Assembly: GCA_030650025.1 (NCBI GenBank) | Contig: JAUSEN010000025.1 | Location: 601-64,600, forward strand | Length of the DNA stretch: 64,000 bases | Direction of reading: 5' to 3' | DNA from: Candidatus Magasanikiibacteriota bacterium | GTDB lineage: Bacteria > Patescibacteriota > Patescibacteriia > Magasanikbacterales > GWA2-37-8 | In this document: positions 3,605 to 56,189 of the stretch, piece after piece | How the letters are laid out: every line of letters starts with the position of its first letter | How positions within the stretch are numbered: position 1 is the stretch's first letter | Notes under the pieces: model-generated | Databases searched by the model: none | Told to the model about the DNA's origin: nothing | The model's input: only the letters and a program-made list of their open reading frames with translations | Program-made: the position numbers and the translations under genes

Positions 3605-3605
3605 A

Positions 3606-4300: not shown

Positions 4301-4380
4301 TGTCATCTTGAGCGAAGCGAAAGATCTAAGAAACATGATTTATTTTTACGCTTAGATTCTTCGCTACGCTCAGAATGACA
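4301..4380. repeat. Intergenic MITE-like long hairpin element, copy A (about 30-bp imperfect inverted arms TGTCATCTTGAGCGAAGCGAAAGATCTAAG ... CTTAGATTCTTCGCTACGCTCAGAATGACA).
   Basis: Near-palindromic arms with a 20-nt loop, lying between cistrons. Related copies occur at 13115-13194 and 56084-56189. Confidence 0.7.
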
Positions 4381-13099: not shown

Positions 13100-13114
13100 T
13101 TTATTTATTTTACC

Positions 13115-13194
13115 TGTCATCTTGAGCGAAGCGAAAGATCTAAGCGTATATTTGGCAAACTTGACTTAGATTCTTCGCTCTGCTCAGAATGACA
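13115..13194. repeat. Intergenic MITE-like long hairpin element, copy B.
   Basis: Same arm sequences as 4301-4380 with a different loop. It overlaps the most upstream ATG of the VirB6-like ORF. Confidence 0.7.
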
Positions 13195-22221: not shown

Positions 22222-23178
22222 CTACAAAGAAGCACTTAAATCCAGCCAATTGGGCAAACTTAACTCTTGCGCGCGAGCGGTTTTGGTAAGGCCAAATGAC
22301 TCTAACAGAGCCATTATTTTGCCACTATCCCCTGCCGGAATTAGAGATTTTAAATTTTTTAACAAAACCTTACGTTTACTAGAAAATCCGAGCCGCGCCA
22401 GTTTAAATAATTTAGATATTTCTTGAGAAGAGAGGCCGGGGGTTTTGGGTGTTAGCTTAATAACAGCCGAATCCACCCTCGGCACTGGCCAGAAAGACTC
22501 GCGAGGAACAGGAAAAACGATGGCTGGCTTTGAGTAAAGCTGAACAGACAAGGCCAAAAGGGACATCGCACCTGGCAGAGCGCAAATTCTCTCCGCCACT
22601 TCCCGCTGGATCATCAAAATCATTTCGCTTGGAGGATTACTAGATTCTAAAAACATTTTTATAAGCGGTGAGGTAATTTGGTACGGGATATTGGCGATGA
22701 CTTTGTATGGACTCACCACCTCTGCTTCCAGCAAAACCTTCCCCTGCCCTGTCCTCGACGTGTATCCTCCCCCCTGCCCCCTCCATTGCGATGGAGGGGG
22801 AGTGGCAATTCCCCTCCCCTTCGCAAAGGGGAGGGCGAGGGTGGGGTTAAAGCGATTCAAAACATTACCCCAAATAATTTCTAAATTATTTATTTTTTTT
22901 TCCTGAATATTATTTTCCCAATAATCTTGTAACTTTTTTTCAATCTCAAAACCAAACACTCTCCCAGCTTGCTCCGCGAGCGAGAGGGTGAGAGTGCCAA
23001 ACCCGGGCCCGACTTCTACCACCGTATCTTGTTTACTTAAATTCGCCACGGCCAAAATTTTATTAATTACCTCGGCGTCTATCAAAAAATTTTGGCCGTA
23101 TTGCTTACTCGGCCGCAGGCCATATTTTTGGCAAAGATGCTTTAGGTGGTCGGGGTTAAAGAGTTTAGTATTATCCAT
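22222..23178 (-). CDS. rsmA: 16S rRNA (adenine1518/1519-N6)-dimethyltransferase RsmA/KsgA carrying an in-frame GC-rich insertion.
   Basis: The N-terminus (QNFLIDAEVINKI..VVEVGPGFGTLT) is typical of KsgA. An inserted segment LALPFAKGRGIATPPPSQWRGQGGGY is encoded by the repeat element. Confidence 0.9.
   Translation of the reverse strand: MDNTKLFNPDHLKHLCQKYGLRPSKQYGQNFLIDAEVINKILAVANLSKQDTVVEVGPGFGTLTLSLAEQAGRVFGFEIEKKLQDYWENNIQEKKINNLEIIWGNVLNRFNPTLALPFAKGRGIATPPPSQWRGQGGGYTSRTGQGKVLLEAEVVSPYKVIANIPYQITSPLIKMFLESSNPPSEMILMIQREVAERICALPGAMSLLALSVQLYSKPAIVFPVPRESFWPVPRVDSAVIKLTPKTPGLSSQEISKLFKLARLGFSSKRKVLLKNLKSLIPAGDSGKIMALLESFGLTKTARAQELSLPNWLDLSASL
22766..22848. mobile_element. Intragenic GC-rich two-hairpin palindromic element, copy 1 (in rsmA).
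   Basis: Module B (CCCTCCATTGCGATGGAGGG) plus module A (CCCCTCCCCTTCGCAAAGGGGAGGG) with a shared ACCCCACCCTCGCCC flank. It is in-frame with no stop codons. Confidence 0.75.
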
Positions 23179-25427: not shown

Positions 25428-26535
25428 ATACTTCGCCTTGGCGCAAAATTTTTATTTTGCTATTTAAGACGCTAACTAATGTACTCGGTTTATTTTTTGT
25501 CAAGATGCCATAATCGAGCATAATATCCGGCTGATATTCTTGATTTTTAAATTGCTCGGCGAGTATCTTAGCGTCATAAATCTCACCGGCATCCGATAAA
25601 TTAGCCGATGTGGCCACGAGAGGCCGACCAATTTTTTCGGTAATTGATTTTAGAAGAGGGTGCGTGGTAACGCGCAGGGCGATGGTGCCAGCCTGCGATA
25701 TCACACCTCTCGCGATGCCACTGCCAATCCTCCCCCCCGCCCCCTCCATTGCTATGGAGGGGGGGACGCGATCTCTGTTTTTAAAAACTTCATCTATAAT
25801 TGAATCTAAAACAGCATCTAAATTATTAAAGACCTGTAAATTATCGAATCTAATAACTTTATAGCCAGAATCTACCAACCACTTAGTGCGTAGTCTGTCC
25901 TTTTCTACTTGATCTTTATCCACATAATGCACATCACCATCTAATTCGATAACTAGTTTTGTGTCGGGTTGAAAAAAATCAACTATGTAAGAGCCTACCC
26001 CATGCTGACGTCTAAATCTGATACCGTTCAATCGCTTATCCCGTAAATGATTCCAAAGAATTAACTCGGCTTTCGTTTGATTTTTTCTAAGTTCCCGGCG
26101 TCTTACTAAGCTAGATATGTAACCAGCTATTCGCTCAAATCGAAATTCGCGTCCCCTCCCCTTAGCAAAGGGGAGGGTAGGGTGGGGTCTGGTATCGCCA
26201 TCGGCCAATCCACCCCCTACCCCCTCCATTGCTATGGAGGAGGGGTGACGATACTCCCCCACCACCGTCAAAGCCCCGGGCCAATATTTTTTAGAAATTT
26301 CTTCTAACTGCTTGCTCCACGCTAAATATTTTTTTGCTTCGGCAATGCTCGGCACGACCACTAGGAGCGGCTTCTTAAAATCCCGGCCTTTAATTTTAAA
26401 AATTTTGTCTACGGCTTGTTGGTTAGTGGCATCACACCCGAGACCATACGACGTTTCGGTGGGAAAAACAATAATCTTGCCATTCAGTATATCGACGACG
26501 AGCTCGGCTAAATTACACTCGGTTAAAATTTTCAT
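25411..26535 (-). CDS. tsaC: L-threonylcarbamoyladenylate synthase TsaC/YrdC interrupted in-frame by a DUF559 endonuclease-like domain flanked by palindromic repeat modules.
   Basis: YrdC N-terminal part (FPTETSYGLGCDATN...) and C-terminal part (TIALRVTTHPLL...PLVATSANLS...). Between them lies the DUF559 motif set (TKAELILWNHL...FRRQHGVGSYIVDFF...VIELDGDVH...VIRF). Confidence 0.85.
   Translation of the reverse strand: MKILTECNLAELVVDILNGKIIVFPTETSYGLGCDATNQQAVDKIFKIKGRDFKKPLLVVVPSIAEAKKYLAWSKQLEEISKKYWPGALTVVGEYRHPSSIAMEGVGGGLADGDTRPHPTLPFAKGRGREFRFERIAGYISSLVRRRELRKNQTKAELILWNHLRDKRLNGIRFRRQHGVGSYIVDFFQPDTKLVIELDGDVHYVDKDQVEKDRLRTKWLVDSGYKVIRFDNLQVFNNLDAVLDSIIDEVFKNRDRVPPSIAMEGAGGRIGSGIARGVISQAGTIALRVTTHPLLKSITEKIGRPLVATSANLSDAGEIYDAKILAEQFKNQEYQPDIMLDYGILTKNKPSTLVSVLNSKIKILRQGEVYVDLA
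25728..25770. mobile_element. Intragenic palindromic element module B, copy 2b (tsaC, distal flank of the DUF559 insert).
   Basis: CCTCCCCCCCGCCCCCTCCATTGCTATGGAGGGGGGG. It encodes PPSIAMEGAGG in-frame. Confidence 0.7.
25771..26150 (-). other. Embedded DUF559 (Vsr-like / PD-(D/E)xK-fold) endonuclease domain inside tsaC.
   Basis: About 125-aa segment matching the DUF559 consensus (LR..qT.aE..LW..L......FrRQ...g.YivDF......viElDG..H......D..R...L...G..viRf). Confidence 0.7.
26150..26250. mobile_element. Intragenic palindromic element (modules A+B), copy 2a (tsaC, proximal flank of the DUF559 insert).
   Basis: CCCCTCCCCTTAGCAAAGGGGAGGG ... CCCCTCCATTGCTATGGAGGAGGGG. It encodes PSSIAMEGVGGG...LPFAKGRG. 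Confidence 0.75.
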
Positions 26536-29014: not shown

Positions 29015-29131
29015 AATTTTGATACGTCATTGCGAGGAGGGAACGAAGTGACCGACAAAGCAATCTTATCATTATTTATTGCAAGGATTGCTTCGTCAGC
29101 GCCTTAACGGCGCTTCCTCGCAATGACAACG

Positions 29132-38475: not shown

Positions 38476-39516
38476 TTATAAAATTATGTCAATATCGCCT
38501 AAAATATCGGTACGTAAGATATTCGCCCCAGCACGCTCTAAATGCTTGATAACTCTGGGGCTCGGGTGGCCGAATTTATTTTTCTGGCCAGATGAAATTA
38601 TGGCTGTTCTAGGATTAACTTTGCTTAAAAAATCCTCGCCGCTCGAGCTGTTGCTCCCGTGATGCCCGACTTTTAAGATGTCAGATTTTAGAGTAGGGCA
38701 ACCAGCACTAGACCCCACCCTCGCCCTCCCCTTTGCTAAGGGGAGGGGAATCGTTGGTGTAGTTACTGATGGCTCTCCCCTCCTTAGCAAAGGAGGGGTT
38801 GGGGGAGGTTTGGCTACACTGCAATATTTCTCTATCAACACTTGCTCGAGCGGTTCTTCGGCGTCGCCGGTAAATAAAAAAGTTTTTCCACTCGGCGCCG
38901 TTAATTTAAACACTATTGAATAATTATTACTTTCGGCGTCCGCGAGCGGCAAGCCCAAATCTTCACCCGGCGACAAAAATTCGAGCGTACTGCTCGCGAT
39001 TTCCAGTTTAGCGAATCCATTGACAACCACCTGGCGAGCCCGACTCGCTTCTACAGTGGCATTAAACTCTCGCCAGTATGGATTATATTCTTTGGATTGG
39101 CCATTCAAAATAATAGTGCCCACCTGGTAGCGGCGCAAAACTTCAACGCAACCGCCATAATGGTCTAGATCCGGATGGGTGACTAATAAATAATCAATTT
39201 TTTTGTTAAACATGGGCAAGGCACGGCCTAGTTTAAACAAAATTGTTTTATCCGGGCCACAATCAACTAACATCTTTTCATCATTGCCAAAATTTATTAA
39301 ACTGCTGTCGCCTTGGCCGACATCAAAAAAAGTAACGCGAAATTTTTTATCTTGCTCGTTCTCTTTCTCTAGATAGCTAACAAACAAAAAAATTGTGCTG
39401 GACAACACGCAAATAATTATAAATACCCAAAATAAATTTTTGTTTTTCTGCATAAGCATAGACAGTTTTGTCATTTCGACCGAGCCCGCAGGGCGAGCGG
39501 AGAAATCTCTGTCCAA
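38476..39516 (-). CDS. ComEC-type metallo-beta-lactamase domain protein (membrane-anchored), carrying an in-frame repeat element.
   Basis: N-terminal TM helix and MBL motifs (LLVTHPDLDHYGG; KVGHHGS). Confidence 0.6.
   Translation of the reverse strand: MDRDFSARPAGSVEMTKLSMLMQKNKNLFWVFIIICVLSSTIFLFVSYLEKENEQDKKFRVTFFDVGQGDSSLINFGNDEKMLVDCGPDKTILFKLGRALPMFNKKIDYLLVTHPDLDHYGGCVEVLRRYQVGTIILNGQSKEYNPYWREFNATVEASRARQVVVNGFAKLEIASSTLEFLSPGEDLGLPLADAESNNYSIVFKLTAPSGKTFLFTGDAEEPLEQVLIEKYCSVAKPPPTPPLLRRGEPSVTTPTIPLPLAKGRARVGSSAGCPTLKSDILKVGHHGSNSSSGEDFLSKVNPRTAIISSGQKNKFGHPSPRVIKHLERAGANILRTDILGDIDIIL
38712..38812. mobile_element. Intragenic palindromic element (two A modules), copy 3.
   Basis: GACCCCACCCTCGCCCTCCCCTTTGCTAAGGGGAGGGGAATCG is 41/41 identical to the truB copy. 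A second A' module is CTCCCCTCCTTAGCAAAGGAGGGG. Confidence 0.75.
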
Positions 39517-40317: not shown

Positions 40318-42000
40318 TTATACCGTATCCTGCCGTTTGGCGGCAATGATATAAACCAGAAGGCCATACAAAATTAGCATCACCCACCACTCTATTTTTA
40401 TTTCCACGGCCGCGTATTTTAAATTGGCGAACCATTCGACGACAAACAGAAAAGCGCGGGAGACTAAAACCACAGGCGCGCCAAAAATAATGCCGAGTGG
40501 CAGATAAATTATCCCGCCAATTAGAGACACGAAACCGCCCAGCATGAGAAACGGCACACTCCAGAGCAATAACACGTTAACCACCGGCGCTACGAGTGAA
40601 ATTAACCCAAACTGATACAACATAAGAGGGAGCGTCATGACAATGGCCGAAATTGTTTGTACAAGAATATTACTGCCTTGCAAAAGCACGTCATTGCGAG
40701 GAACGAGCGAAGCGAGCGACGAAGCAATCTCTGTGTTATTGCCAAAAGATTGCTTCGTCCTCCTCCCCGCTACGCGGGTTATTGTCCTCGCAATGACGTC
40801 TGCGAAGACTGGCGATAAATAAACTAACCCAATCGTCGCTAAAAACGAAAGCTGGAAACCGGCGTCATACAATAAAATATAGGGTGAAATTAAAACCATC
40901 AGCGCGGCTGTGAAGCTTAAACCCGGGCCCATACTAGAGAGCCGCCCTAAATATTGCGCGAGTAGTACCAAAGCGCCCATGACAGCCGCGCGCACGACCG
41001 AAGCCGTAGCGCCAGTCATAATTACAAAACAAAACAAGACGAAGAGCGTGGCCCAAAATGCCTGCCGCCGCCAAAGCCCAATTAAAATTAAAATGCTCAT
41101 TAAGGCGCTCGCGATTATCGTAATATTAAAACCAGACACTGCCAAAACATGCGAGAGGCCGGTACGCTGAAAGGATTTTTTTAAACTCTCTGGGAACCCG
41201 CTCGAACCGCCAAACAAAAGCCCATTTATAAAACTATTCTCCGGCTCGGCCCAAATTTGCGAGGCCGTTGAGAAAAATACGCTCCGGACCCAATATATTT
41301 TAGAACCAATAAATTTTACAGGGCCTTCATAATTTTGGCTTATTCCTGAAAGAAAAGTAACACTCCGGACATCGTTGCAAACCGCTTGAATATTGCGACT
41401 CGCCAGATATCGATCGTAACGAAAGTTATTGCTCGCTTTATATTCGGCCGCCTGGCCGGCTGCCTGACGACTCCTCGGTTTTGGTACCTCTACAAAACAA
41501 CCGAAGGCCAGCGTATCGCCGTAAGTAAATTTATTGGCCAGAGATGTTTTTAACAAAATTTTTCCGTTCACGCTCTGACGCACCAATTCTATGCCCTCCC
41601 CCACTATACCAACTGTTTTAACTTTCACAACATATTCAAGGCTACTAATTTTTTCTTCGGGGTACTTGGCCACCTCGCCTGTAATGTTTATTTTCTGACC
41701 ATTATAGTAACAAATATTGTTAAAATTAGCGCAATCAAAACCGGTTACACTAACGCGCCAGAGACCAAACATAAAAAATAAACAGGCCAGTAGAAAAAAT
41801 CTGGCGAAAATATTTTTCCAAAATAAAATTGCGCCGGCCAATACCACAAACAGCCCGGCGTACCAATAAATACCGGGAGCAAGTGTGACGAAATCGGAAA
41901 ATAGCGAACCCGCGGCGATGCCGCCTAAAAATAAAACGCAAAACGCGATGAACGTTTGGCTGGGGGAAATAATTATTTTTTTAAGCCACGCGCGCGGCAT
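40318..42000 (-). CDS. comEC: ComEC/Rec2 family competence channel protein (DUF4131 plus Competence domain).
   Basis: Polytopic. Competence-domain motif GLSHVLAVSGFNITII. Confidence 0.8.
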   Translation of the reverse strand: MPRAWLKKIIISPSQTFIAFCVLFLGGIAAGSLFSDFVTLAPGIYWYAGLFVVLAGAILFWKNIFARFFLLACLFFMFGLWRVSVTGFDCANFNNICYYNGQKINITGEVAKYPEEKISSLEYVVKVKTVGIVGEGIELVRQSVNGKILLKTSLANKFTYGDTLAFGCFVEVPKPRSRQAAGQAAEYKASNNFRYDRYLASRNIQAVCNDVRSVTFLSGISQNYEGPVKFIGSKIYWVRSVFFSTASQIWAEPENSFINGLLFGGSSGFPESLKKSFQRTGLSHVLAVSGFNITIIASALMSILILIGLWRRQAFWATLFVLFCFVIMTGATASVVRAAVMGALVLLAQYLGRLSSMGPGLSFTAALMVLISPYILLYDAGFQLSFLATIGLVYLSPVFADVIARTITRVAGRRTKQSFGNNTEIASSLASLVPRNDVLLQGSNILVQTISAIVMTLPLMLYQFGLISLVAPVVNVLLLWSVPFLMLGGFVSLIGGIIYLPLGIIFGAPVVLVSRAFLFVVEWFANLKYAAVEIKIEWWVMLILYGLLVYIIAAKRQDTV

Positions 42001-42003
42001 AAA

Positions 42004-42639
42004 CTAAAATTCTCGGGGCTCGCCATTGTTCAACACTTCCCAATTTAAACCCGCGGCTTTAAATTCGCGCTCGGCGTTTGGGGTATAGGGATTAGCAGTA
42101 ACCAAAAAACCATCATGGATGGGAAACATGATTTTAGGATTTATAGCGATACCAAACTCTAGAGTATGGGCTAGGTCGGTCCAGGGAGCGACTAAAGGCA
42201 AGGCGAGAATAGCAACTGGCTCCTCTGGCAATTCGTATGAATCTCCAGGGTGGAACAATTGACCAGCGATAATAAAACCAACATTGTCGCAGATGGGCAT
42301 GGTTTTATAAATAAAAGCGTGTTTCTCGCCAAAACCCTTAATACTGACCGTTTTTACTTGCACGACCTCTCCATTTTTCAAAATACTAGCCACAACACCC
42401 TCGGCTTTGGCTTTAGCAACGACCGTAGGATTGGTAAAAATTTTAGCTCCAGGATTATTTTTTAAAATATTTTTGATATTCGAAATATAAAAATGGTCGC
42501 CGTGCTCATGCGTAATTAAAATAGCGTCAATATTTTTTAAATCTGGCGGCACCACACTCCACATGCCCGGATCAATTAAAATTCCGGCATCCGCTTCTTC
42601 TACTAATAAACACGAGTGGCCGAATTTGGTGATTTTCAT
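42004..42639 (-). CDS. MBL-fold metallo-hydrolase.
   Basis: HxHxDH motif (ITHEHGDHF). Confidence 0.7.
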   Translation of the reverse strand: MKITKFGHSCLLVEEADAGILIDPGMWSVVPPDLKNIDAILITHEHGDHFYISNIKNILKNNPGAKIFTNPTVVAKAKAEGVVASILKNGEVVQVKTVSIKGFGEKHAFIYKTMPICDNVGFIIAGQLFHPGDSYELPEEPVAILALPLVAPWTDLAHTLEFGIAINPKIMFPIHDGFLVTANPYTPNAEREFKAAGLNWEVLNNGEPREF

Positions 42640-42656
42640 ATTTAAATTAATACCCG

Positions 42657-43262
42657 TTATTTTAGAATCGCTTTATATAAAATCTTACGCACCGTACATT
42701 TATCTCCAAAATGCCCAATCGCCAAAGCGCTGGCATTAAAGTTTATTGGCAACTTAATTGTTTTTATTTTTGAGGTGCGAAGAGTTATGTGCGGACTGAA
42801 TTTTTTGCCAATCGAAGTTTTTAAATATTTTTTTACCCAGAGTTTAGTAATCGGATTAAAGTGCTCCCCCGGTTTAATATAAAACATTTTTTTCTCGGCT
42901 TGCCTACTCGTCAGCGGCGTGGCGGCCGCGATAATTTTATTTTGTAAGTACCTTAGTTTTTTTGTAATCTCTAAATCTAAAAAATGCATCGGCTCCCCCG
43001 CCATTACGTCACTGTTAAATCGAGTCAATTTCAGTGGCAGGCTAGCATACTCGGCCGCAATGTTTTTAACTACCCAGGCCACTTTTAATAAATTTTTTTC
43101 TGATACCACCCCAAAAAATAAAGAAATGTGGGGCAAATTATCTTTTAAATTCAAAGGAAAGGGATACCTGTCTAGATGCGAAAACTTACGACTAATTTTA
43201 ACACACCGCCGCATTATATTTTTGGGCGGCAGTACTATAATATCAATCGCGTAATTTTTCAT
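42657..43262 (-). CDS. 2H phosphoesterase (LigT / 2'-5' RNA ligase-like) family protein.
   Basis: Two H-x-(S/T)-x motifs (PHISLFFG and PHITLRTS). Confidence 0.5.
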   Translation of the reverse strand: MKNYAIDIIVLPPKNIMRRCVKISRKFSHLDRYPFPLNLKDNLPHISLFFGVVSEKNLLKVAWVVKNIAAEYASLPLKLTRFNSDVMAGEPMHFLDLEITKKLRYLQNKIIAAATPLTSRQAEKKMFYIKPGEHFNPITKLWVKKYLKTSIGKKFSPHITLRTSKIKTIKLPINFNASALAIGHFGDKCTVRKILYKAILK

Positions 43263-43286: not shown

Positions 43287-46200
43287 TTAAACCACCACAC
43301 TCACTAATCTCCCCTTAACATAGATGATCTTCTTCGGCGTTTTACCTTCTAACCACTTGTGAATTTTTTCTGACTCTAGCGCTAATTTTTTGATTTCGTC
43401 TTCGGAAATATCGGGCGCCACTGTTAATTCATCGCGCACTTTGCCGTTGATTTGAATGACGATGGTAATAATTGATTCTTTGGCGAGCTCGGGGTCAAAC
43501 TGTGGCCAGGCCGAATATGCAAGAGGCGTACCGTCACCAAATTTAGACCATAACTCCTCGGCAAGATGCGGCGCAAAAGGTGAAAGTAATTGAATGAGTG
43601 TTGAGTAGTGAGTAGGGAGTAGCGAAATTTGTTTGGTCATTTCATTAACCAATTCCATCAACTTCGCAATCGCGGTATTAAATCGCATCGCTTCAATATC
43701 TTCGGAAACTTTTTTAATGGTTTGGTGAAGAATAGAAAGGGTTTGCCTTTGCGAGACCTCCCCCCACCCCTCCTTTGCTAAGGAGGGGGGAGCGAGCCCC
43801 CTCTCCATCGCAATGGAGAGGGCGGGGGGTGAGGATTCGCCTATCTTCTCCTGCAACCCCCATACCTTCTCTAAAAACCGCCGCACGCCAACTAGGCCGT
43901 TGGTATCCCACATCACGGCCTGATCAAACGGGCCCATAAACATAATATAGCAACGGAAAGCATCGGCCCCGAATTTTTCTATCATTTCGTCCGGGTTAAT
44001 TACGTTGCCGCGCGATTTGCTCATTTTTTCCCCATCCGGCCCCAAAATCATGCCGTGGCTAGTGCGTTTTTTATACGGCTCGCTCGTGGGCACCACGCCA
44101 ATATCAAATAAAAACTGATTCCAAAAACGGGAATATAATAAATGCAAAACAGTGTGTTCCATACCGCCATTGTACCAATCCACTGGAGTCCAGTACCGTA
44201 ATTTTTCTGGCGAAGCAAATTCTTTATCGTTGTTGGGATCAGTATAACGTAGAAAATACCAAGACGACCCGGCCCAGTTCGGCATAGTGTCAGTTTCGCG
44301 TCTCGCCTCTCCACCACAGCGTGGGCAGGTGGTGTTTACCCAACTAGTCATGGTCGCGAGCGGCGACTCGCCCGTGTCGGTGGGCTGGTATTTTGCGACG
44401 GCGGGGAGTTCTAACGGCAATTCACTTTCGGGGAGAGGAACCCAGCCGGTATGTTTACTCTGTAAAAATAAATCTAATAAAACTGGAATTTCAGGTTCAA
44501 CCGTAAAATGTTCGTAGCCAGAAACTGTTTGAACTTGCCAGCCCTCTGGTAACACGTCGTGACCAACGGAATGAACACTTGGATCATCGTTAGAAAAAAT
44601 TGCGTTGCCACTAAAAACCTTATTTTTTATTTTCTGCCAGTCAAGTGGTGCGTTCCAAAACGATTGAACTGTTGAATAATCTCTCTCTGGTTTCTTTTTC
44701 TTTTTAATCTCAAGATCCTCGTCGGTCAATGTTGCCAGCGCGGGCGCAACCAGATAAAGATAACCAATTTTATTTTTTAATTTTTCTAATAAGTGTAAGG
44801 CTGCTTTGCCACCAAGGCTGTGACCAACAATAACATCATCTTCGCCAAGCTGTTTAGCTAGAGGCAATAATTCTTCAAGCCATTTTTCTAATATCGGCCT
44901 ATCGGTAGTGGTCATTGTTGGGGTCATCACCTCGAAGCCTCTTAATTCTAATTCTTTCTTTACCCAAGGTAGCCAATTTTTATCAGCTCTGCCCGTGAAG
45001 CCATGAATAATCAAAACTTTCTGCTTTTTATTTTTACAATTCTCGCAATACACCAGCGGAATCGGCTCGCCCCAGTAATGCTGGCGCGAAAACACCCAGT
45101 CGCGCAGTTTGTAATTTACTTGTCGCTTGCCCCACCCTTTGGCTTCAATGTAATCCATTATTTTATTTTTTGCTTCCATGATCGGCAAGCCGTTGAGAAA
45201 CTCGCTATTTACCATGGCACCAGTTTCTTCCTGAACCTGCTCTGGCTTGGTGATTGGCGATGCATCGCCATCGGGCCCAACCACCACGCGGATAATCTCC
45301 AGGCCCATCTCAATCGCAAATTCAAAATTGCGTAGATCGTGACCAGGAACGCCAACCAGGGCGCCAGTGCCAACATTGCCTAAAACAAAATCACTCACAT
45401 ACATTGGCATCTTAAACCCAGTGAGCTGATTAATCGCATACCAGCCGGTGAACACACCCGTTTTTTTCTTTCCGGCCTGGGCGCGCTCCATATCGGTCTT
45501 TTTCTTTGTTTCGGCAATATATTTTTCGACTTTAACGCGCTCTGGAAACTTTTCTAAATTTTCGATTACAAACTTGCCATCGGGAGCCAGAGCAATAAAC
45601 GTAGCGCCAAAATTTGTATCTGGCCGCGTGGTGAAAACAGTAACCGGCGCGCCCGATCCTTCAACTTCGTATGTAATGTTTATGCCTTCGCTCCGCCCAA
45701 TCCAGTTCTCCTGTTGCACGCGCGCGGGGGTAATATAGTCAACGGTTTTTAAGCCCTCCAAAAGCTTGTCGGCATATTTGGTAATCGCGAGCATCCACTG
45801 GTCTTTATCACGCTGTTCAACCGGCGTGCCACAGCGCTCGCAACAACCATTTATCACTTCTTCGTTCGCGAGGCCGGTTTTGTCCTTGGGGCACCAATTG
45901 ATAGGCAGATTTTTCTTATAGGCCAAGCCGTGCTTAAAAAACTGTAGAAACATTTGTTGTGTCCATTTATAATACGCGGGGTCGGAAGTATTTACCTGGC
46001 GCGACCAATCAAAACTATACCCCAGAGCTTTGAGCTGACGGGTAAAATTCGCAATATTTTTAGCCGTCACCTCCGCGGGCGGCCGACCCGTCTTAATCGC
46101 AAAATTTTCAGTCGGGAGGCCAAAAGCGTCAAAGCCAATGGGATATAAAACATTGTAGCCTTCCATGCGACGCTTCCGGCTTACAATGTCCATGGCCGTA

Positions 46201-46376
46201 AACGGCCTAGGATGGCCGACATGCAGGCCTTCGGCCGATGGGTAAGGAAATTCTATGAGAGAATAAAACTTTTTTTCCGCATGCTTAAAATCTTCCGTAA
46301 CTTCAAAAGTTTTCTGGTCTTCCCAAAATTTCTGCCATTTCTTTTCTATCTTATGAGGATCGTATTTTTTTGGCAT
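43287..46376 (-). CDS. leuS: Leucine--tRNA ligase carrying an inserted alpha/beta-hydrolase domain and an in-frame repeat element.
   Basis: HIGH region (PYPSAEGLHVGH), CP1 editing domain, KMSKS. 1029 aa, against about 860 aa for typical LeuRS. Confidence 0.9.
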   Translation of the reverse strand: MPKKYDPHKIEKKWQKFWEDQKTFEVTEDFKHAEKKFYSLIEFPYPSAEGLHVGHPRPFTAMDIVSRKRRMEGYNVLYPIGFDAFGLPTENFAIKTGRPPAEVTAKNIANFTRQLKALGYSFDWSRQVNTSDPAYYKWTQQMFLQFFKHGLAYKKNLPINWCPKDKTGLANEEVINGCCERCGTPVEQRDKDQWMLAITKYADKLLEGLKTVDYITPARVQQENWIGRSEGINITYEVEGSGAPVTVFTTRPDTNFGATFIALAPDGKFVIENLEKFPERVKVEKYIAETKKKTDMERAQAGKKKTGVFTGWYAINQLTGFKMPMYVSDFVLGNVGTGALVGVPGHDLRNFEFAIEMGLEIIRVVVGPDGDASPITKPEQVQEETGAMVNSEFLNGLPIMEAKNKIMDYIEAKGWGKRQVNYKLRDWVFSRQHYWGEPIPLVYCENCKNKKQKVLIIHGFTGRADKNWLPWVKKELELRGFEVMTPTMTTTDRPILEKWLEELLPLAKQLGEDDVIVGHSLGGKAALHLLEKLKNKIGYLYLVAPALATLTDEDLEIKKKKKPERDYSTVQSFWNAPLDWQKIKNKVFSGNAIFSNDDPSVHSVGHDVLPEGWQVQTVSGYEHFTVEPEIPVLLDLFLQSKHTGWVPLPESELPLELPAVAKYQPTDTGESPLATMTSWVNTTCPRCGGEARRETDTMPNWAGSSWYFLRYTDPNNDKEFASPEKLRYWTPVDWYNGGMEHTVLHLLYSRFWNQFLFDIGVVPTSEPYKKRTSHGMILGPDGEKMSKSRGNVINPDEMIEKFGADAFRCYIMFMGPFDQAVMWDTNGLVGVRRFLEKVWGLQEKIGESSPPALSIAMERGLAPPSLAKEGWGEVSQRQTLSILHQTIKKVSEDIEAMRFNTAIAKLMELVNEMTKQISLLPTHYSTLIQLLSPFAPHLAEELWSKFGDGTPLAYSAWPQFDPELAKESIITIVIQINGKVRDELTVAPDISEDEIKKLALESEKIHKWLEGKTPKKIIYVKGRLVSVVV
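43757..43838. mobile_element. Intragenic palindromic element (A-variant plus B-variant), copy 4, in leuS.
   Basis: CCCCTCCTTTGCTAAGGAGGGG ... CCCTCTCCATCGCAATGGAGAGGG. It encodes SPPALSIAMERGLAPPSLAKEGWG. Confidence 0.7.
44460..45040 (-). other. RBBP9/YdeN-type serine hydrolase (alpha/beta-hydrolase) domain inserted into LeuRS between WGEPIP and RETDTMP.
   Basis: VLIIHGFTGRADKNWLPW...VIVGHSLGGKAAL (GxSxG nucleophile elbow) ...LVAP...NDDPSVH..GYEHF. Confidence 0.65.
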
Positions 46377-46445: not shown

Positions 46446-47276
46446 TTATTTGTTAAACAAATCCATTAACTTGGGATGTAATTTGGGGTTGGCGATAACC
46501 ATATCTTTCCGCCCGCGTTGCCAAATATTACCCTCGCAATCGGTGGCGCGCGCGCCGGCTTCAGTCGCTATCACGAACGCGGCCAAAAAATCATGGTACA
46601 TTGGCCCGTTTTTAAGCACCGCATCCATACGGCCGGCGGCCACATAGCAAGCCCCGAGCATACTGCCGTAATTAAAAATCCATTTGCCGCGCTCCCCCAT
46701 TAAATTATTATAGAACCGCAGATAGTCTGGGTATTTTTCGGAATCATAAGGCGAACCAGTGTTCATGTGGCCCGGGCTAAAATCCATAAAACTATTCTGC
46801 ACATCATCGTTTTCGTTCACAGTAATTTTTTTATCATTTAAAAAAGCGCCCTTCCCAGCCTCGGCAAAATACAACTCATCGTTCATGGCATCGTAAATCG
46901 CTCCCAAAAAAGGCTGGCCATTTTTTGTAATTCCGATCATCACGCACCAATGAGAAATTTTATTGGCAAAATTTCTGGTGCCGTCAATGGGGTCTATCAC
47001 CCACGTGTACTCCGCGCCAGGATTAATTTCGCCGGCACGCTCTTCGGTAATAATGCCGTGGTCCGGGAATTTTTCTTTTATTTTGTTAACCAAAAAAATT
47101 TCCGTTTCTTTATCGGCAACTGTCACGATGTCAGAGGGGCTGGATTTATAGGCGTGCGCAACGCCCTCTAAATAATAACCTTTAGCCAAAAACCCAGCTT
47201 CTTTAATAATGTCTTGAAGAAATTTTTGCATAAAATCAATTAAATGGCCGTACCGAGTGTGGCCATTGTATCTCAA
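46446..47276 (-). CDS. Inositol monophosphatase family protein (SuhB/CysQ-like).
   Basis: WVIDPIDGTRNF and DxxxGxxxF motifs. Confidence 0.8.
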   Translation of the reverse strand: MRYNGHTRYGHLIDFMQKFLQDIIKEAGFLAKGYYLEGVAHAYKSSPSDIVTVADKETEIFLVNKIKEKFPDHGIITEERAGEINPGAEYTWVIDPIDGTRNFANKISHWCVMIGITKNGQPFLGAIYDAMNDELYFAEAGKGAFLNDKKITVNENDDVQNSFMDFSPGHMNTGSPYDSEKYPDYLRFYNNLMGERGKWIFNYGSMLGACYVAAGRMDAVLKNGPMYHDFLAAFVIATEAGARATDCEGNIWQRGRKDMVIANPKLHPKLMDLFNK

Positions 47277-47862: not shown

Positions 47863-48966
47863 TTACCGTTGGCATCTCGGGCAAAAATGCGTCCCTCGGC
47901 CAGCAATTTTAATTTTTTTAATTATTTCCTCGCATTTTTTGCACTTTTCTCCGTCTCTGTCATAGACATTTAAAAAATCCGTATAATTGCCTTTTTTACC
48001 ACTCGAATCGAGGAAATTACGAAACGTCGTACCGCGATGTTTAAGGGCGGCGCGCAGAATTTTAGGGATCGCCAAAAATAATTTTTTTTGTTCTAATTTG
48101 GTAACCGCGCCAACGCGCCGATTAGGACGAACGCCGGCGGCAAAGCAAACTTCGTCCACATAAATATTCCCGAGTCCGGCGATAAGTTCTTGGTTTAAAA
48201 GCAGGGCTTTTAGATTTGTATTCTGACGTTTTTTAAAGAGTAAAGAAAAATATGCAAAAGTGAATCCTCCCCCTGCCCCCTCCATTGCGATGGAGGGGGG
48301 TCGCGATTTCCCTCCCCTTCGCAAAGGGGAGGGCGACCCGCCCGAATCGCTACGCGAAGCGTTGCGGGCAGGGGGTGGGGTCTCGATCGGTTCGGGACCA
48401 AATTTTTTTAGCGCTCTCTCGACGTCCTGCGCAGTTGCTAATTTCATGTAACCAAACAAACGCAGGTCGTTAAAAAATAACTCTCCTCCATCTTGGAACG
48501 CAAAGGCGATACGCGTATGCTTATTCGGTAGGCATTCAATGTCGCTTTCCGACAATTTGTGCCCGCCGGCCACGATTTCCACCCCGCCCTTTTTTTCCCG
48601 CTCATCACCGCCATAAAGGCGGGATCCCGCCACGAGGCGGTGATCACCGCCATAAAGGCGGGATCCCGCCACGAGGCGGCGATAAATTAACTGGCCGGTC
48701 ATTTTAAGATGTACTAACAAACTTTGGGCTCCGTGCTTCAATCTAAAAATCATCAGCTTCCCGCGCCGATCAATGTCTCTAAAACTATTGCCCGTGAGAG
48801 CTTGAATAAATTTTGTACTCTGGCCGCCAACGCTCGTTTTTTTATAAACCTTAACTTGAACAATTTTTTTGTTCAAGATTTTATGGCGCAAGTCTTGACG
48901 AATAGTCTCTACCTCTGGTAGTTCGGGCATAGAATTACACTGTATCAAAATTACAAAATTTCGCAA
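47863..48966 (-). CDS. mutM: Formamidopyrimidine-DNA glycosylase (Fpg/MutM) with a tandem 13-aa duplication and an in-frame repeat element.
   Basis: PELPEVE N-terminus and a C-terminal zinc finger (CxxC...CPRC). Confidence 0.85.
   Translation of the reverse strand: MRNFVILIQCNSMPELPEVETIRQDLRHKILNKKIVQVKVYKKTSVGGQSTKFIQALTGNSFRDIDRRGKLMIFRLKHGAQSLLVHLKMTGQLIYRRLVAGSRLYGGDHRLVAGSRLYGGDEREKKGGVEIVAGGHKLSESDIECLPNKHTRIAFAFQDGGELFFNDLRLFGYMKLATAQDVERALKKFGPEPIETPPPARNASRSDSGGSPSPLRRGGKSRPPSIAMEGAGGGFTFAYFSLLFKKRQNTNLKALLLNQELIAGLGNIYVDEVCFAAGVRPNRRVGAVTKLEQKKLFLAIPKILRAALKHRGTTFRNFLDSSGKKGNYTDFLNVYDRDGEKCKKCEEIIKKIKIAGRGTHFCPRCQR
48264..48390. mobile_element. Intragenic palindromic element (B+A plus an extra small hairpin), copy 5, in mutM.
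   Basis: CCCTCCATTGCGATGGAGGGGGG ... CCCTCCCCTTCGCAAAGGGGAGGG ... GACCCCACC. It encodes PSPLRRGGKSRPPSIAMEGAGGG. Confidence 0.75.
48603..48680. repeat. Perfect-to-near-perfect tandem duplication (2 x 39 bp) inside mutM.
   Basis: ATCACCGCCATAAAGGCGGGATCCCGCCACGAGGCGG(T/C)G repeated head-to-tail. It encodes HRLVAGSRLYGGD twice. Confidence 0.85.
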
Positions 48967-49404: not shown

Positions 49405-51423
49405 TTAGCTCAAGACCAGCTTTTTCTCTTTCTTTTCTTCTTTATACGCTTCGAGAACGTCGCCCTCTTCGATTTTTAATTTACCTTCAAACTGCAGGCC
49501 GCATTCACTGCCGCTGGGGATTTCGTTCACGGCCTGTTTGCCGCTCTGAAGCTGGACCAATTTGCCTAGGCCAATAATCTCACCATCACGTTTAACACGC
49601 ACTTTGGCTTCTTTAACCAATTTACCGCTTTCGACGCGAGCGCCGACGATCATAACTTTTTTATCACTGCGGAATATTTGCAAAACTTTGGCGTTACCAA
49701 GTTCGGTTGTGATGAGTTCGGGATTTAGTAATTTCTGCAATTCTTCTTTAAGATCATCGAATAAATCGTAAATAATTTTGTGCTGCCTAAAAATAATATT
49801 ATTTTTTTGAATCATTTCAAAAGCGACCGGAGTAGTGGTGGTATTAAAACCGTAAATAATAGCGCCGCTCGCCATGGCTCTCTGAACATCATCCGCCGTG
49901 ATATTGCCCAGGCCCTTGGCCACGATTTTAACGCCCACTTCTTCGTTTTTAATCTTTTCAATAGAGCCAACGATGGCTTCGAGCGACCCAAGAGTGTCGG
50001 CCTTAATAACCATGTTAAAATTTTTGTGGCCTTCTTCGGCCGCGGCCTCTTGCTGGGCGGCGGAAACGCGCTGTTCGGCGCCGGTTTGAGTGGCGCGTTT
50101 AGCGCGAACGTCCACGACCTCGGCCGAGTCAGCCTGGCTTAAATCCAAGACATCGCCGACTTGAGGGGCAATTTTAAAACCTAAAATGCGAACTGGGGTA
50201 GAAGGAGGGGCGGCGGTAATATCTTTACCATGATGATCTTTGAGCGCGCGGGCTTTGCCATAAATTTCGCCATTAATAACGAGCGGGTCGTTCACGCGCA
50301 AAGTTCCGGTTTGGACCAAAATAGTCGCGACCGGCCCTTGACCCTTATCCACATGAGCTTCAATAACCGTGCCGGCGGCCGGACGAATGGGGTTGGCCTT
50401 GATACTGCCCTCGTTAACAGCCGCGACCGCGAGCAAAGCATCGAGAAGCTTATCAATATTTTTATTTTCTTTGGCCGAGATTTCTACCATGGGAGTGTCG
50501 CCACTCCAGTCCTCGGGAATAATGTTGTGCTGGGCTAAATCGTTTTTAACTTTTTGCACATCGGCTCCAGGTTTATCGATCTTATTTATCGCAACCACGA
50601 GAGGAAGTTTGGCGGCCTTAATAATGTTAATGGCTTCCACGGTTTGCGGCTTGACAGAATCATCGGCCGCTACCACCAAAATGGCGATGTCCGCCACTTT
50701 GGCGCCGCGGCTCCGCATGACTGTGAAAGCTTCGTGGCCGGGAGTGTCAATAAACGTTAGAAGTTTTTTGGCTTTGGTTTTGGGGTCAGTCCAAACAGTT
50801 TGATAAGCGCCGATGTGCTGGGTAATACCACCGGCTTCGGTGGCCACCACATTGGCACTCCGAATGGCGTCGAGTAACTTGGTTTTGCCGTGGTCCACAT
50901 GACCCATAACCACAATCACGGGTGGGCGGGCGTCCGTGGCATCGGCTGTCAAACGCGTTTCGAGCTGGGCCACATGTTCGGAACTGCCTTCACTTTTATT
51001 TTCGGTAACAGCCGCGACCACGCTAAAGCCTAAATCACCGGCAATAATCGTCGCCGTATCACGGTCAATATTTTCGTTTTGGTTTACCAAGATGCCATTT
51101 TTCATTAGTTCCACGATAAGGGCATTCACCGGTGTTTGCAAGATGTCGGCCAGGGCGCGCACGGTTAATTTGTCGGGAAGGGCGATGGTCGCGCCGCTCG
51201 CCTTGCGGGCTTCTTTTTCTTTTAGTTTTTCTTTTTCTTTTTCTTCTTTTTCACGGCGCTCTAAAATAAAACGAATGCGGCGCCAATCTTTTTGGATCTG
51301 GGTGGCTACTTTGTCATCTATTTTTATGGCCTTGGCGCCAATATCAAAACCAAACTCCGGGAGGACAGACAAGAGCTTTTGGGGGTGGATATTTAGCTGG
51401 CGAGCAAGTTCGGAGACATTCAT
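49405..51423 (-). CDS. infB: Translation initiation factor IF-2.
   Basis: G-domain motifs (GHVDHGKT, DTPGH, NKID) and IF-2 C-terminal domains. Confidence 0.9.
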   Translation of the reverse strand: MNVSELARQLNIHPQKLLSVLPEFGFDIGAKAIKIDDKVATQIQKDWRRIRFILERREKEEKEKEKLKEKEARKASGATIALPDKLTVRALADILQTPVNALIVELMKNGILVNQNENIDRDTATIIAGDLGFSVVAAVTENKSEGSSEHVAQLETRLTADATDARPPVIVVMGHVDHGKTKLLDAIRSANVVATEAGGITQHIGAYQTVWTDPKTKAKKLLTFIDTPGHEAFTVMRSRGAKVADIAILVVAADDSVKPQTVEAINIIKAAKLPLVVAINKIDKPGADVQKVKNDLAQHNIIPEDWSGDTPMVEISAKENKNIDKLLDALLAVAAVNEGSIKANPIRPAAGTVIEAHVDKGQGPVATILVQTGTLRVNDPLVINGEIYGKARALKDHHGKDITAAPPSTPVRILGFKIAPQVGDVLDLSQADSAEVVDVRAKRATQTGAEQRVSAAQQEAAAEEGHKNFNMVIKADTLGSLEAIVGSIEKIKNEEVGVKIVAKGLGNITADDVQRAMASGAIIYGFNTTTTPVAFEMIQKNNIIFRQHKIIYDLFDDLKEELQKLLNPELITTELGNAKVLQIFRSDKKVMIVGARVESGKLVKEAKVRVKRDGEIIGLGKLVQLQSGKQAVNEIPSGSECGLQFEGKLKIEEGDVLEAYKEEKKEKKLVLS

Positions 51424-52552: not shown

Positions 52553-53320
52553 ATGACCCCTCTCCCTCCTGATTTCCTCCTCATCAACAAACCAGCGGGC
52601 TGGACCAGTTTTGACGTGGTGAATTTTATTAGAAAAAAAGCGCGCGTCGATTCTGGAAATAAAAAAATCCGTGTGGGCCACGCGGGCACGCTTGATCCGT
52701 TCGCCACCGGCCTCTTAATTGTAGGCGTGGGGCGGGAGGCAACTAAAAAATTAGATGAATTTAAAAATTTGCCCAAGACTTATCTGGCCACTATAAAATT
52801 GGGAGCGACCAGTGATACGGGAGATGTGACTGGAGTAATTACCGAGACCCCACCCTCGCCCTCCCCTTTGCTAAGGGGAGGGGAATCGCCCTCCTCCATC
52901 GCAATGGAGGGGGTAGGGGGAGGATTCGCCTTTGGCAAGGAGGGGCTGGGGGAAGTTTCGGAAAAACAAATCAAAAAAATCTTAAAACAATTTCTTGGCA
53001 AGCAAAGGCAAATTCCACCGATGTACTCGGCTAAAAAAATTGGCGGGCAGAGATTGTATAAATTAGCGCGCGCCGGAAAAACTATTAAACGAGAGCCGAG
53101 TGAAATTGAAATTTATAAAATCAAATTGCTCTCTTATGATTGGCCAATTCTAAAAATCGAAGTAACGTGCGGCGCGGGGACGTATATCCGTACTCTGGCC
53201 GAAGACATTGGCAAAAAACTGGGGACCATGGCCTACTGCCAAGAACTAACCCGCACTAAAATTGGTCCATATGCGCTAGAGCAAACCACTGATTTCCGAA
53301 GCAAGTCGCCAGCAGCTTGA
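52553..53320 (+). CDS. truB: tRNA pseudouridine(55) synthase TruB carrying an in-frame repeat element.
   Basis: GHAGTLDPFATGLL catalytic motif. A roughly 37-aa GC-rich insert lies in the middle. Confidence 0.9.
   Translation: MTPLPPDFLLINKPAGWTSFDVVNFIRKKARVDSGNKKIRVGHAGTLDPFATGLLIVGVGREATKKLDEFKNLPKTYLATIKLGATSDTGDVTGVITETPPSPSPLLRGGESPSSIAMEGVGGGFAFGKEGLGEVSEKQIKKILKQFLGKQRQIPPMYSAKKIGGQRLYKLARAGKTIKREPSEIEIYKIKLLSYDWPILKIEVTCGAGTYIRTLAEDIGKKLGTMAYCQELTRTKIGPYALEQTTDFRSKSPAA
52846..52955. mobile_element. Intragenic palindromic element (A plus B plus degenerate A), copy 6, in truB.
   Basis: GACCCCACCCTCGCCCTCCCCTTTGCTAAGGGGAGGGGAATCG ... CCTCCATCGCAATGGAGGGGG. It encodes PSPLLRGGESPSSIAMEGVGGG. 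Confidence 0.75.
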
Positions 53321-56083: not shown

Positions 56084-56189
56084 TGTCATTCTGAGCACAT
56101 TCGCTACGCTCAGTGTAAACTCCGCGAAGAATCTAAGGGCAAACAGGCAGAAAAAAACGCTTAGATCTTTCGCTTCGCTCAAGATGACA
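56084..56189. repeat. Intergenic MITE-like long hairpin element, copy C (opposite orientation, with a 26-nt internal insertion).
   Basis: TGTCATTCTGAGC...GCGAAGAATCTAAG ... CTTAGATCTTTCGCTTCGCTCAAGATGACAA. It starts immediately after an extended -10 (TGcTATAAT, 56070-56078) upstream of hup. Confidence 0.7.

Follow-up and report, generated by a model that had tools for sequence, protein, structure and literature searches.

Aminoacyl-tRNA synthetases (aaRSs) are among the most conserved enzymes, and the insertion domains found in them are usually treated as ancient and fixed. One such module, the leucine-specific domain that precedes the KMSKS loop, is present in the leucyl-tRNA synthetases (LeuRSs) of Thermus thermophilus (Tth) and Escherichia coli and is not universal. 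Another is Zn2, which is counted among the discrete insertion modules of bacterial LeuRSs (PMC9424281). Here we describe the LeuRS gene in a stretch of 64,000 nucleotides from a Candidatus Magasanikiibacteriota bacterium (GenBank assembly GCA_030650025.1, contig JAUSEN010000025.1, positions 601 to 64,600 of the forward strand), which is referred to as the window. This LeuRS almost certainly carries a complete serine hydrolase of the YdeN/RBBP9 family, nested on short linkers in the Zn2 tip of an otherwise normal synthetase.

The chemistry of this hydrolase family is of interest for a synthetase. The 3' end of an aminoacyl-tRNA is an aminoacyl ester of a nucleoside, and valacyclovir is a nucleoside analogue esterified with valine. 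Single hydrophobic amino acids (Leu/Ile, Phe, Tyr and Trp) form acyl-enzymes with RBBP9, which Shenoy et al. (2020, Mol Pharm 17:1706; cited in PMC7730578) report in their title as a valacyclovir-activating enzyme.

A serine hydrolase domain in the Zn2 knuckle of LeuRS

The LeuRS open reading frame (ORF), its landmarks and those of the inserted cassette are as follows, in the order of the protein (aa, amino acids).

43287..46376 (−), LeuRS ORF, host of the cassette; 1029 aa, bacterial type, 703.9 bits against T. thermophilus LeuRS 1h3n
46212..46223 (−), HVGH (HIGH class I signature), aa 52–55; by motif reading and an 88-sequence alignment
45147..45710 (−), CP1 editing domain, aa 223–410; PF13603, E = 9.3e-53, TTRPDT and GTG...HD intact
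45036..45047 (−), first CxxC of the Zn2 knuckle (C444, C447); the cassette begins with the following codon
44448..45035 (−), PF06821 (YdeN/RBBP9) serine-hydrolase cassette, aa 448–643; by the alignment break against 1h3n, Pfam and fold
45003..45005 (−), His458, HG motif after strand 1; invariant in 64/64 and across 41 embedded and free-standing homologs
44817..44819 (−), Ser520, nucleophile of GHSLGG (aa 518–523); aligns with RBBP9 Ser75 (GHSSGA)
44583..44585 (−), Asp598 (NDDPSV), predicted triad acid; aligns with RBBP9 Asp138
44508..44510 (−), His623 (GYEHF), predicted triad histidine; aligns with RBBP9 His165
44316..44327 (−), second CxxC of the Zn2 knuckle (C684, C687); aligned with T. thermophilus LeuRS
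44013..44027 (−), KMSKS loop, aa 784–788; by motif reading
43401..43748 (−), anticodon-binding domain, aa 877–992; PF08264, E = 2.1e-23

The alignment of the window LeuRS to 1h3n splits cleanly into two blocks, in which residues 3–447 match Tth 2–442 and residues 644–779 match Tth 443–579, indicating that the insert is exactly 196 aa long and stands between C442 and G443 of the Tth enzyme with no host residue deleted. The cassette separates the two CxxC pairs of Zn2 and is joined to the host by a Lys-rich linker on the N side (KNKKQK) and by QSKHT on the C side; the spacing from WGEPIP to RETDT is accordingly 258 aa, compared with 63–64 aa in insert-free relatives. A preliminary description of the locus, made from the DNA letters, had put the insert at 44460–45040, essentially right when set against the alignment-defined 44448..45035, and the motifs quoted in it (HYWGEPIP at residue 433, CENCK at 444, VLIIHGF at 454, GHSLGG at 518, LVAP at 542, NDDPSVH at 596, GYEHF at 620, CPRCGG at 684 and RETDT at 693) were all located in the protein. 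Its placement of the insert in the leucyl-specific domain region was wrong: because the flanking CENC (444–447) and CPRC (684–687) are the Zn2 cysteines, the site is the Zn2 knuckle, and the leucine-specific domain (Tth 580–636, about 57 aa) is absent from this protein, in which residues 779 and 784 align with Tth 579 and 637. An intein, which the same description had excluded, can be rejected, since the insert folds as an alpha/beta hydrolase without a HINT fold and lacks splice-junction residues (it starts with Lys448 after Cys447 and ends with KHT at Thr643, followed by Gly644).

The host looks like a fully functional LeuRS by its motifs. A Pfam-A scan of the ORF returned PF00133, PF09334, PF13603 and PF08264, which make up the complete LeuRS architecture, together with PF06821. 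In the alignment of 88 relatives, H52, G54 and H55 of HVGH, T254 and D347 of CP1, and the four Zn2 cysteines C444, C447, C684 and C687 (matching CEAC...CPKC of Tth) were all invariant, and KMSKS was invariant or near-invariant; TTRPDT and GTG..HD of CP1 align to their T. thermophilus equivalents. The distance from RETDT to KMSKS is 91 aa in most LeuRS relatives. A full-length AlphaFold2 model, structural modelling having been proposed as a check in the preliminary description, was confident, with a predicted local distance difference test score (pLDDT) of 89.4 and a predicted template modelling score (pTM) of 0.85 overall and pLDDT values of 93–98 in the insert region. Plus-strand ORFs that overlap LeuRS (45003..45335 and others) are mechanical by-products.

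Conservation of the catalytic residues

The Pfam-A scan placed PF06821 (Ser_hydrolase) at residues 454–619 (E = 1.6e-15, 57.9 bits, for a gathering cut-off of 22), and a sequence search of the PDB with the insert alone gave Bacillus subtilis YdeN (1uxo, 3e-11) and human RBBP9 (1e-4). The domain-only model of the insert (pLDDT 96.5, pTM 0.93) had 1uxo and RBBP9 chains as its seven best PDB fold matches (E = 8e-13 to 2e-10, template modelling (TM) scores 0.73–0.86), with TM scores of 0.82/0.86 for 1uxo and 0.74/0.78 for RBBP9 in complex with Phe (7oex). The YdeN/RBBP9 type read from the motifs in the preliminary description is therefore borne out by a profile match above the gathering cut-off, and the GxSxG serine, the distal Asp and the distal His that it had taken for a catalytic triad fall in the alignment columns of the experimentally defined RBBP9 triad (Ser75/Asp138/His165). 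For this comparison RBBP9 was added to an alignment of 245 PF06821 domains, in a sequence of which residues 7–107 match the PDB search alignment and whose numbering reproduces S75, S76, Y99, L103, E108, D138, F140, L141 and H165 of PMC8866121.

The catalytic residues are retained across a family of cassettes that share 25–60% overall identity. Ser520 was invariant in 99/99 Zn2-site cassettes and in 110/110 free-standing homologs, and His623 in the same 99/99 cassettes and in 64/64 of a smaller same-site set. Within those 64 inserts H458, S520, G522 and H623 were all invariant, and remained so after the free-standing homologs were added; by analogy with other alpha/beta hydrolases, the HG motif of His458 would be the oxyanion-hole motif. 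The triad Asp occupies the 598 column in 69 of the 99 Zn2-site cassettes, the others being a subtype with Asp at 544/595. The ratio of nonsynonymous to synonymous substitution rates (dN/dS) of the cassette was 0.19 and 0.066 in two moderately diverged pairs, similar to that of the LeuRS core. The domain thus appears to be a bona fide serine hydrolase that is under selection and apparently active. The RBBP9 pocket residues Y99 and F140 are not conserved in the cassettes, and the helical segment after strand 6 (residues about 548–585) is longer in the window copy and its closest relatives. No second hydrolase paralog was found within the window.

Distribution of LeuRS-embedded hydrolases

The first homolog search gave only proteins of 462 aa or less, and full-length hosts were retrieved with the whole protein as query. 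This search yielded 120 LeuRSs with 50–64% identity where the alignment spans the whole query, mostly from Magasanikbacteria, Uhrbacteria, Falkowbacteria and unclassified Patescibacteria, and the majority of them carry PF06821. When insert positions were counted relative to the insert-free reference P0197 (804 aa), 86 of 121 LeuRSs had a 179–210-aa insert exactly at position 443, with a mosaic distribution on the core tree; the ortholog comparison suggested in the preliminary description thus found the equivalent insert at the identical residue in most of the closest LeuRSs. Relatives of the cassette are encoded by 163 stretches from GTDB species representatives. In the best 80 of these, the relative occupies the Zn2 position of a LeuRS ORF in 51 cases and lies inside CP1 in 2. 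Recurrence on this scale, in 86 of 121 closest LeuRSs and in 51 species representatives, greatly exceeds what chance would give. A library of 1.84 billion representatives contained 1688 relatives of the insert at E ≤ 1e-3, with long LeuRS proteins as the top scorers. In total 113 of 245 collected PF06821 domains were located at three LeuRS sites. All long hosts that were checked proved to be LeuRS except P0278 (651 aa, in which no other domain was found), and no other aaRS was seen as a PF06821 host among them.

An assembly artefact or chimera can be rejected, since 51 species-representative genomes share the architecture and the variants described below recur in independent samples. Some automatic annotations read 'leucyl-tRNA synthetase/predicted alpha/beta hydrolase family esterase', and full-text literature searches returned no description of a LeuRS in which Ser-hydrolase, NUDIX or HAD domains are nested. 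The window LeuRS was not on record in an exact-sequence look-up, and viral carriage of the cassette was limited to just one distant match in IMG/VR.

Two loci with archaeal labels, L054 (Woesearchaeota) and L051 ('Methanosarcinales'), encode divergent bacterial-type LeuRSs with a Ser-hydrolase at the Zn2 junction, where CERCAKKKQK is followed by VLIIHGF. These could reflect transfer of the cassette or the gene between the candidate phyla radiation (CPR) and DPANN, or mis-binning; the organism labels of many third-party annotation (TPA) metagenome-assembled genomes (MAGs), such as 'uncultured Gammaproteobacteria', are unreliable.

Exchange of cassettes between near-identical genes

Divergence of the cassette was hardly correlated with that of the LeuRS core (Spearman r = 0.11; 0.08 and 0.14 when each core half was taken separately), whereas the core halves correlated with each other (0.65). 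In 7 of 10 insert-bearing pairs with core divergence below 6%, the cassettes were 51–61% divergent, and in the reverse case, P0201/P0204, cores that are 17% divergent carry cassettes that differ by only 2.4%. A single ancient insertion followed by vertical descent is rejected on the grounds of r = 0.11 and of near-identical cores with 51–61% divergent cassettes. A neighbour-joining tree of the 245 PF06821 domains, built on p-distances and rough at its depth (its subtypes being obvious in the alignment), split the Zn2-site cassettes into at least 4 clades, among which free-standing genes and CP1-site cassettes are interspersed.

The clearest case is provided by the LeuRSs P0124, P0138 and P0140, whose cores show no difference over about 800 residues. 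The hydrolase allele of P0124 is distinct from the one shared by P0138 and P0140, with 45% aa identity between the two; in CP1, P0124 and P0140 have a HAD domain and P0138 has a NUDIX domain. Outside the cassettes the DNA of the three contigs is 98.2–99.5% identical, including flanks over 7–8 kb, and the contigs are syntenic (HU, RNase Y, TruB, IF2, thioredoxin, LeuRS and ComEC), with the same type of neighbourhood in the window. In a codon-threaded alignment, DNA identity is 97–100% through the codon after C-K-N-K-K-Q-K, falls to 38–77% within the hydrolase cassette and resumes at 97–100% from K-N-T-G-W; the CP1 cassette shows the same sharp pattern. Of these variants, two were each recovered from two independent samples, the pairs P0123/P0128 and P0134/P0142 repeat the pattern, and three hydrolase alleles occur within one species-level cluster.

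At the Zn2 junctions only A-rich Lys-codon tracts were seen (TGT AAA AAT AAA AAR CAR AAA before the cassette and AAA AAT/CAT ACY GGC TGG after it), and no recombinase adjoins LeuRS in the window or at the related loci. The simplest reading is repeated capture of hydrolase domains, followed by frequent homologous replacement in which the conserved LeuRS flanks serve as homology arms. Since the LeuRS core is unchanged when the cassette changes, no co-adapted interface is needed, and the cassette behaves as an autonomous module. We conclude that the hydrolase is very probably an autonomous, exchangeable cassette, replaced by recombination between 97–100% identical genes and kept in each lineage under purifying selection. 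The closest metagenome relatives of the window LeuRS are 77–78% identical in the flanking segment, and the collections hold no near-identical relative of the window species, so swapping is demonstrated in related species and not at the window locus itself.

LeuRS loops as sites for several enzyme cassettes

Other enzyme domains occupy the same and further loops of LeuRS, at the following positions of the reference P0197.

Reference positions 207–210, an unassigned domain
Reference positions 235–244, start of CP1, Ser-hydrolase or Ham1
Reference positions 364–377, inside CP1, NUDIX, HAD, methyltransferase or Ser-hydrolase, sometimes a NUDIX and HAD tandem
Reference position 443, Zn2, Ser-hydrolase
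Reference positions 518–531, position of the leucine-specific domain, HAD or an unassigned domain

PF06821 was found at three different sites of LeuRS, and several families can be combined in one protein: P0132 carries NUDIX, HAD and Ser-hydrolase domains, and the largest number in one LeuRS is four inserted segments, in P0228 (1536 aa). The examples inspected had an intact NUDIX box and an intact HAD DxD motif. At the position of the leucine-specific domain, a few relatives (P0133, P0173 and P0226) have a HAD domain or an unassigned domain of 170–230 aa. In P0006 the Ser-hydrolase stands in C-terminal CP1, directly before NYKLRDW, and the Zn2 site holds an unassigned domain of about 140 aa.

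The Zn2 tip is a general hot spot for insertions. In other relatives it carries peptides of 14–47 aa, indicating that Zn2 is a generally permissive site. Many metagenomic LeuRS relatives have Zn2-tip peptides of 20–47 aa without a recognisable domain, some of them Lys/Ser-rich or Gly-rich (loci L095, L098, L104–L109, L116, L122, L125–L127, L137, L142, L158 and L168).

Possible function of the cassette and alternative explanations

From the chemistry of RBBP9 and the fusion partners of the family, we tentatively infer that the cassette is a tethered aminoacyl-ester hydrolase acting near LeuRS. It would hydrolyse alpha-aminoacyl esters (or amides) via an acyl-Ser520 intermediate, and its likely substrates would be the 3' ends of aminoacyl-tRNAs or aminoacyl-nucleoside and aminoacyl-nucleotide species in the vicinity of the synthetase. 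The preliminary description had offered a trans-editing or deacylase-like add-on, or a domesticated insertion, as possible roles. Such a cassette would correspond to a deacylase of the free-standing type, or a 'house-cleaning' factor, that is held at LeuRS by tethering, and not to a docked second editing site that depends on geometry; the variable sites, the swappable and dispensable cassettes, the intact CP1 and the acidic isoelectric point (pI) argue against a precisely docked one. Among proteins in which PF06821 is fused to other domains (P0396, P0379, P0329, P0346, P0343, P0311, P0331, P0322 and P0332), two 50%-identity clusters combine it with the PF01588 tRNA-binding domain (P0396 and P0379) and one combines it with Smr, and these fusions seem to point to translation. 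Taken as a whole, comprising the identity of the domain, its exchange between strains and this function, we give the explanation a probability of roughly 45%. That the hydrolase has taken over from a decayed CP1 editing site was considered and rejected, since the CP1 motifs are invariant.

Several observations weigh against the proposed function. Other fusions of PF06821, to peptidase S51 (two clusters), NUDIX (two clusters), adenylate kinase and inositol monophosphatase (IMPase), as well as its nesting in a glycosyltransferase, appear to point elsewhere. NUDIX, HAD, Ham1 and methyltransferase domains are hosted by LeuRS loops too, which fits a plain passenger. As CP1 editing is intact, there is no obvious unmet need for editing, and as close relatives exist without any cassette, the cassette is dispensable. 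The embedded cassettes are net acidic, so that nothing suggests that they themselves have a surface for binding RNA (median pI 6.3 versus 5.6 for free-standing homologs, a weak difference). Glu108, the ligand of the alpha-amine in RBBP9, sits in a lid region without reliable alignment.

The close rival of a tethered aminoacyl-ester hydrolase is a pure passenger, that is, an unrelated housekeeping or house-cleaning enzyme that uses the permissive loops of LeuRS only as a scaffold for expression and stability in a tiny genome and whose substrate would be unconnected with tRNA charging. We regard this as a serious possibility. It would account for the several unrelated small enzyme families housed by the same loops, as many as four modules in P0228, for cassette swaps that leave the LeuRS core unchanged, for the existence of insert-free close relatives, for the tolerance of the Zn2 tip to domain-less peptides of 20–47 aa, and for the miscellaneous partners of PF06821 listed above (adenylate kinase, IMPase, NUDIX, peptidase S51 and the glycosyltransferase). 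It offers no explanation for the repeated entry of PF06821 into LeuRS (three sites, several lineages), for the finding that LeuRS houses almost half of the PF06821 domains collected while no other aaRS was seen as host, or for the fusions of the family to tRNA-binding domains.

By analogy, the turnover of cassettes might alternatively reflect conflict, in which detoxifying hydrolases placed at the target would destroy toxins directed at LeuRS, such as aminoacyl-adenylate mimics, or other attacks on translation, and diversifying selection would drive their replacement. The alleles diverge extremely although their backgrounds are clonal, their borders are codon-sharp and one cluster holds three of the hydrolase alleles, a pattern typical of conflict loci; all common cassettes hydrolyse ester or phospho-anhydride bonds, and LeuRS is a known target of an adenylate mimic, the natural toxin agrocin 84/TM84 (PMC5059758). 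On the other hand, no toxin, immunity or defence gene adjoins LeuRS in the window or at the related loci, viral contigs gave only the one distant match in IMG/VR, and the same mosaic could arise without conflict if naturally competent populations that live together recombine, so that we consider conflict improbable.

A role in leucine supply seems to us quite improbable. Here the cassette would be an aminopeptidase that frees N-terminal hydrophobic residues from scavenged peptides for an auxotroph, consistent with RBBP9 being an aminopeptidase that removes hydrophobic and aromatic N-terminal residues and traps Leu/Ile, with the two clusters in which PF06821 is fused to peptidase S51 (dipeptidase E family) and with LeuRS as the specific host. 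The insertion sites vary between Zn2 and CP1, so there is no conserved channel geometry, tethering would be of little obvious value for leucine that diffuses freely, and the tRNA-binding-domain fusions would be left unexplained. Finally, a neutral or selfish insertion that has a structural role at most and whose catalysis is irrelevant, including an intein-like or decaying mobile element, would fit the patchy presence and horizontal exchange and the in-frame palindromic-repeat junk tolerated inside LeuRS, Fpg and ComEC, but it is strongly disfavoured and very improbable in view of Ser and His (and likewise HG) being invariant in 99 cassettes at 25–60% identity, dN/dS of 0.07–0.19, a hydrolase domain that folds confidently in models, and the lack of both intein junction residues and a HINT fold.

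A broader reading, in which patescibacterial LeuRS would be an 'integron within a protein' that exchanges whole enzyme domains in frame, the hydrolase cassettes (Ser-hydrolase, NUDIX, HAD and Ham1) would form a diversifying arsenal acting on aminoacyl-tRNA or aminoacyl-adenylate-like molecules, and PF06821 would be a new class of aminoacyl-ester proofreading or detoxification domains built on the alpha/beta-hydrolase fold and kept by selection (possibly through conflict with toxins directed at LeuRS) instead of by descent, is in our estimate doubtful.

Repeats and neighbouring genes in the window

Further features of the window are given below.

43752..43829 (−), GC-rich palindromic repeat in frame inside LeuRS, aa about 850–875, SSPPALSIAMERGLAPPSLAKEGWGEV; repeat family D1–D3, GC 0.56
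49408–51423, IF2
42004–42639, metallo-beta-lactamase-fold gene of 211 aa, between LeuRS and ComEC
40318–42000, ComEC

The palindromic repeat in LeuRS, which has pLDDT values of 44–55 in the full-length model, is an insertion separate from the hydrolase. GC-rich palindromic repeats are dispersed over the window (22770–22847, 25716–25781, 26153–26261, 38710–38814, 43752–43829, 48255–48340 and 52845–52937), usually as two side-by-side hairpins such as CCCCTCCCCTTCGCAAAGGGGAGGG. Two copies are in frame, one in LeuRS (SSPPALSIAMERGLAPPSLAKEGWGEV) and one in the Fpg/MutM-like ORF 47863..48966 (PPSIAMEGAGGG), and they recall the Rickettsia palindromic elements (RPEs). The Fpg/MutM-like ORF also contains a 39-nt tandem duplication at 48599–48676, which gives RLVAGSRLYGGD twice.

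Short repeats of a second family, ACGTCATTGCGAGGA...GAAGCAATCT, were observed at 29024–29066, 40688–40730, 4301–4330, 13115–13144 and 56160–56189, with one copy within the ComEC ORF. At another locus, L064, 36-nt direct repeats (2957–2992 and 3542–3577; TTGTCNNTGCGAGGAACGAAGTGACGAAGCAATCTC, translated as ARNEVTKQS) bracket the in-frame PF06821 domain within the glycosyltransferase. These repeats look like the second short-repeat family, and they are a possible route by which a hydrolase cassette could be mobilised.

Immediately upstream of LeuRS, and transcribed from the same strand, is a gene of the inositol-monophosphatase family (46446–47276). On the other side, a 201-aa ORF at 42657–43262 (−) lies between LeuRS and the metallo-beta-lactamase-fold gene; it has no Pfam match, and its H-x-S/T-like motifs PHISLFF and PHITLRT recall, by eye only, 2H phosphoesterases/LigT. 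The metallo-beta-lactamase-fold gene is present in L002, L004 and the window and absent from L001, which is otherwise 98–99% identical. The samples behind L001, L002 and L004 are ERZ4216102, GCA_964561035.1 and SRR34217542. Elsewhere in the window there are two giant ORFs, at 13219–21456 (−; 2745 aa) and at 8477–13120 (−; 1547 aa, without Pfam match), with a TraG/VirD4-like P-loop ATPase ORF at 1730–3661 (−) near them.

Implications and comparison with known systems

In these LeuRSs an essential synthetase serves as a scaffold into which foreign enzymes are inserted with their catalytic motifs kept, and in which they are exchanged between strains whose surrounding DNA is 98–100% identical. This is a new mode of accessory-genome variation, consisting of domain cassettes within a protein, in ultra-small CPR bacteria and archaeon-labelled MAGs. 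It also carries a warning, since LeuRS is a common phylogenetic marker and is a recombination mosaic in these lineages. The orphan YdeN/RBBP9 family gains a testable link to aminoacyl-ester chemistry, with a possible new module for tRNA quality control or protection from toxins; if the cassettes do act on aminoacyl-tRNA or on toxins directed at the synthetase, the system would be new in kind. For protein engineers, the naturally permissive sites of LeuRS (the Zn2 tip, two CP1 loops and the position of the leucine-specific domain) offer places for insertion.

The closest described proteins are YdeN (1uxo) and RBBP9 (2qs9 and 7oex), with which the cassette shares the PF06821 profile, sequence similarity, the fold of a minimal alpha/beta hydrolase of about 190 aa and an aligned triad; they are free-standing, whereas the LeuRS cassette is nested inside another enzyme. 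With the editing modules of aaRSs (CP1 of LeuRS, IleRS and ValRS, INS of ProRS, YbaK, AlaX and Dtd) it has in common that a hydrolytic domain lies in or beside a synthetase and is plausibly aimed at the aminoacyl ester bond, and the fusions of PF06821 to tRNA-binding domains resemble the architecture of trans-editing factors. Unlike the editing and trans-editing domains (CP1, INS/YbaK, AlaX, Dtd and ThrRS N2), the insert has no fold homology to any of them by Pfam and PDB comparison, and it is dispensable, polymorphic and interchangeable with NUDIX and HAD domains, while the canonical CP1 is still intact.

The use of permissive surface positions is shared with the LeuRS modules ZN1, Zn2 and leucine-specific domain and with lineage insertions of aaRSs and RNA polymerase. 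Known insertions of this kind are small structural or RNA-binding modules fixed in a lineage, whereas the LeuRS cassettes are whole foreign enzymes that are replaced between near-clonal genes. Inteins resemble the cassettes as in-frame elements of essential genes with patchy distribution and precise borders; the hydrolase, in contrast, remains part of the mature protein, where its fold is that of a hydrolase and not of a HINT domain. Gene cassettes of integrons are likewise interchangeable functional units at a fixed site, but those of LeuRS are in-frame protein domains and not separate genes, and neither an integrase nor an attC-like site was found. Synthetase insertion modules are thus already known, and what is new here is the nested alpha/beta hydrolase, the interchangeable enzyme cassettes and their codon-sharp replacement at the level of strains.

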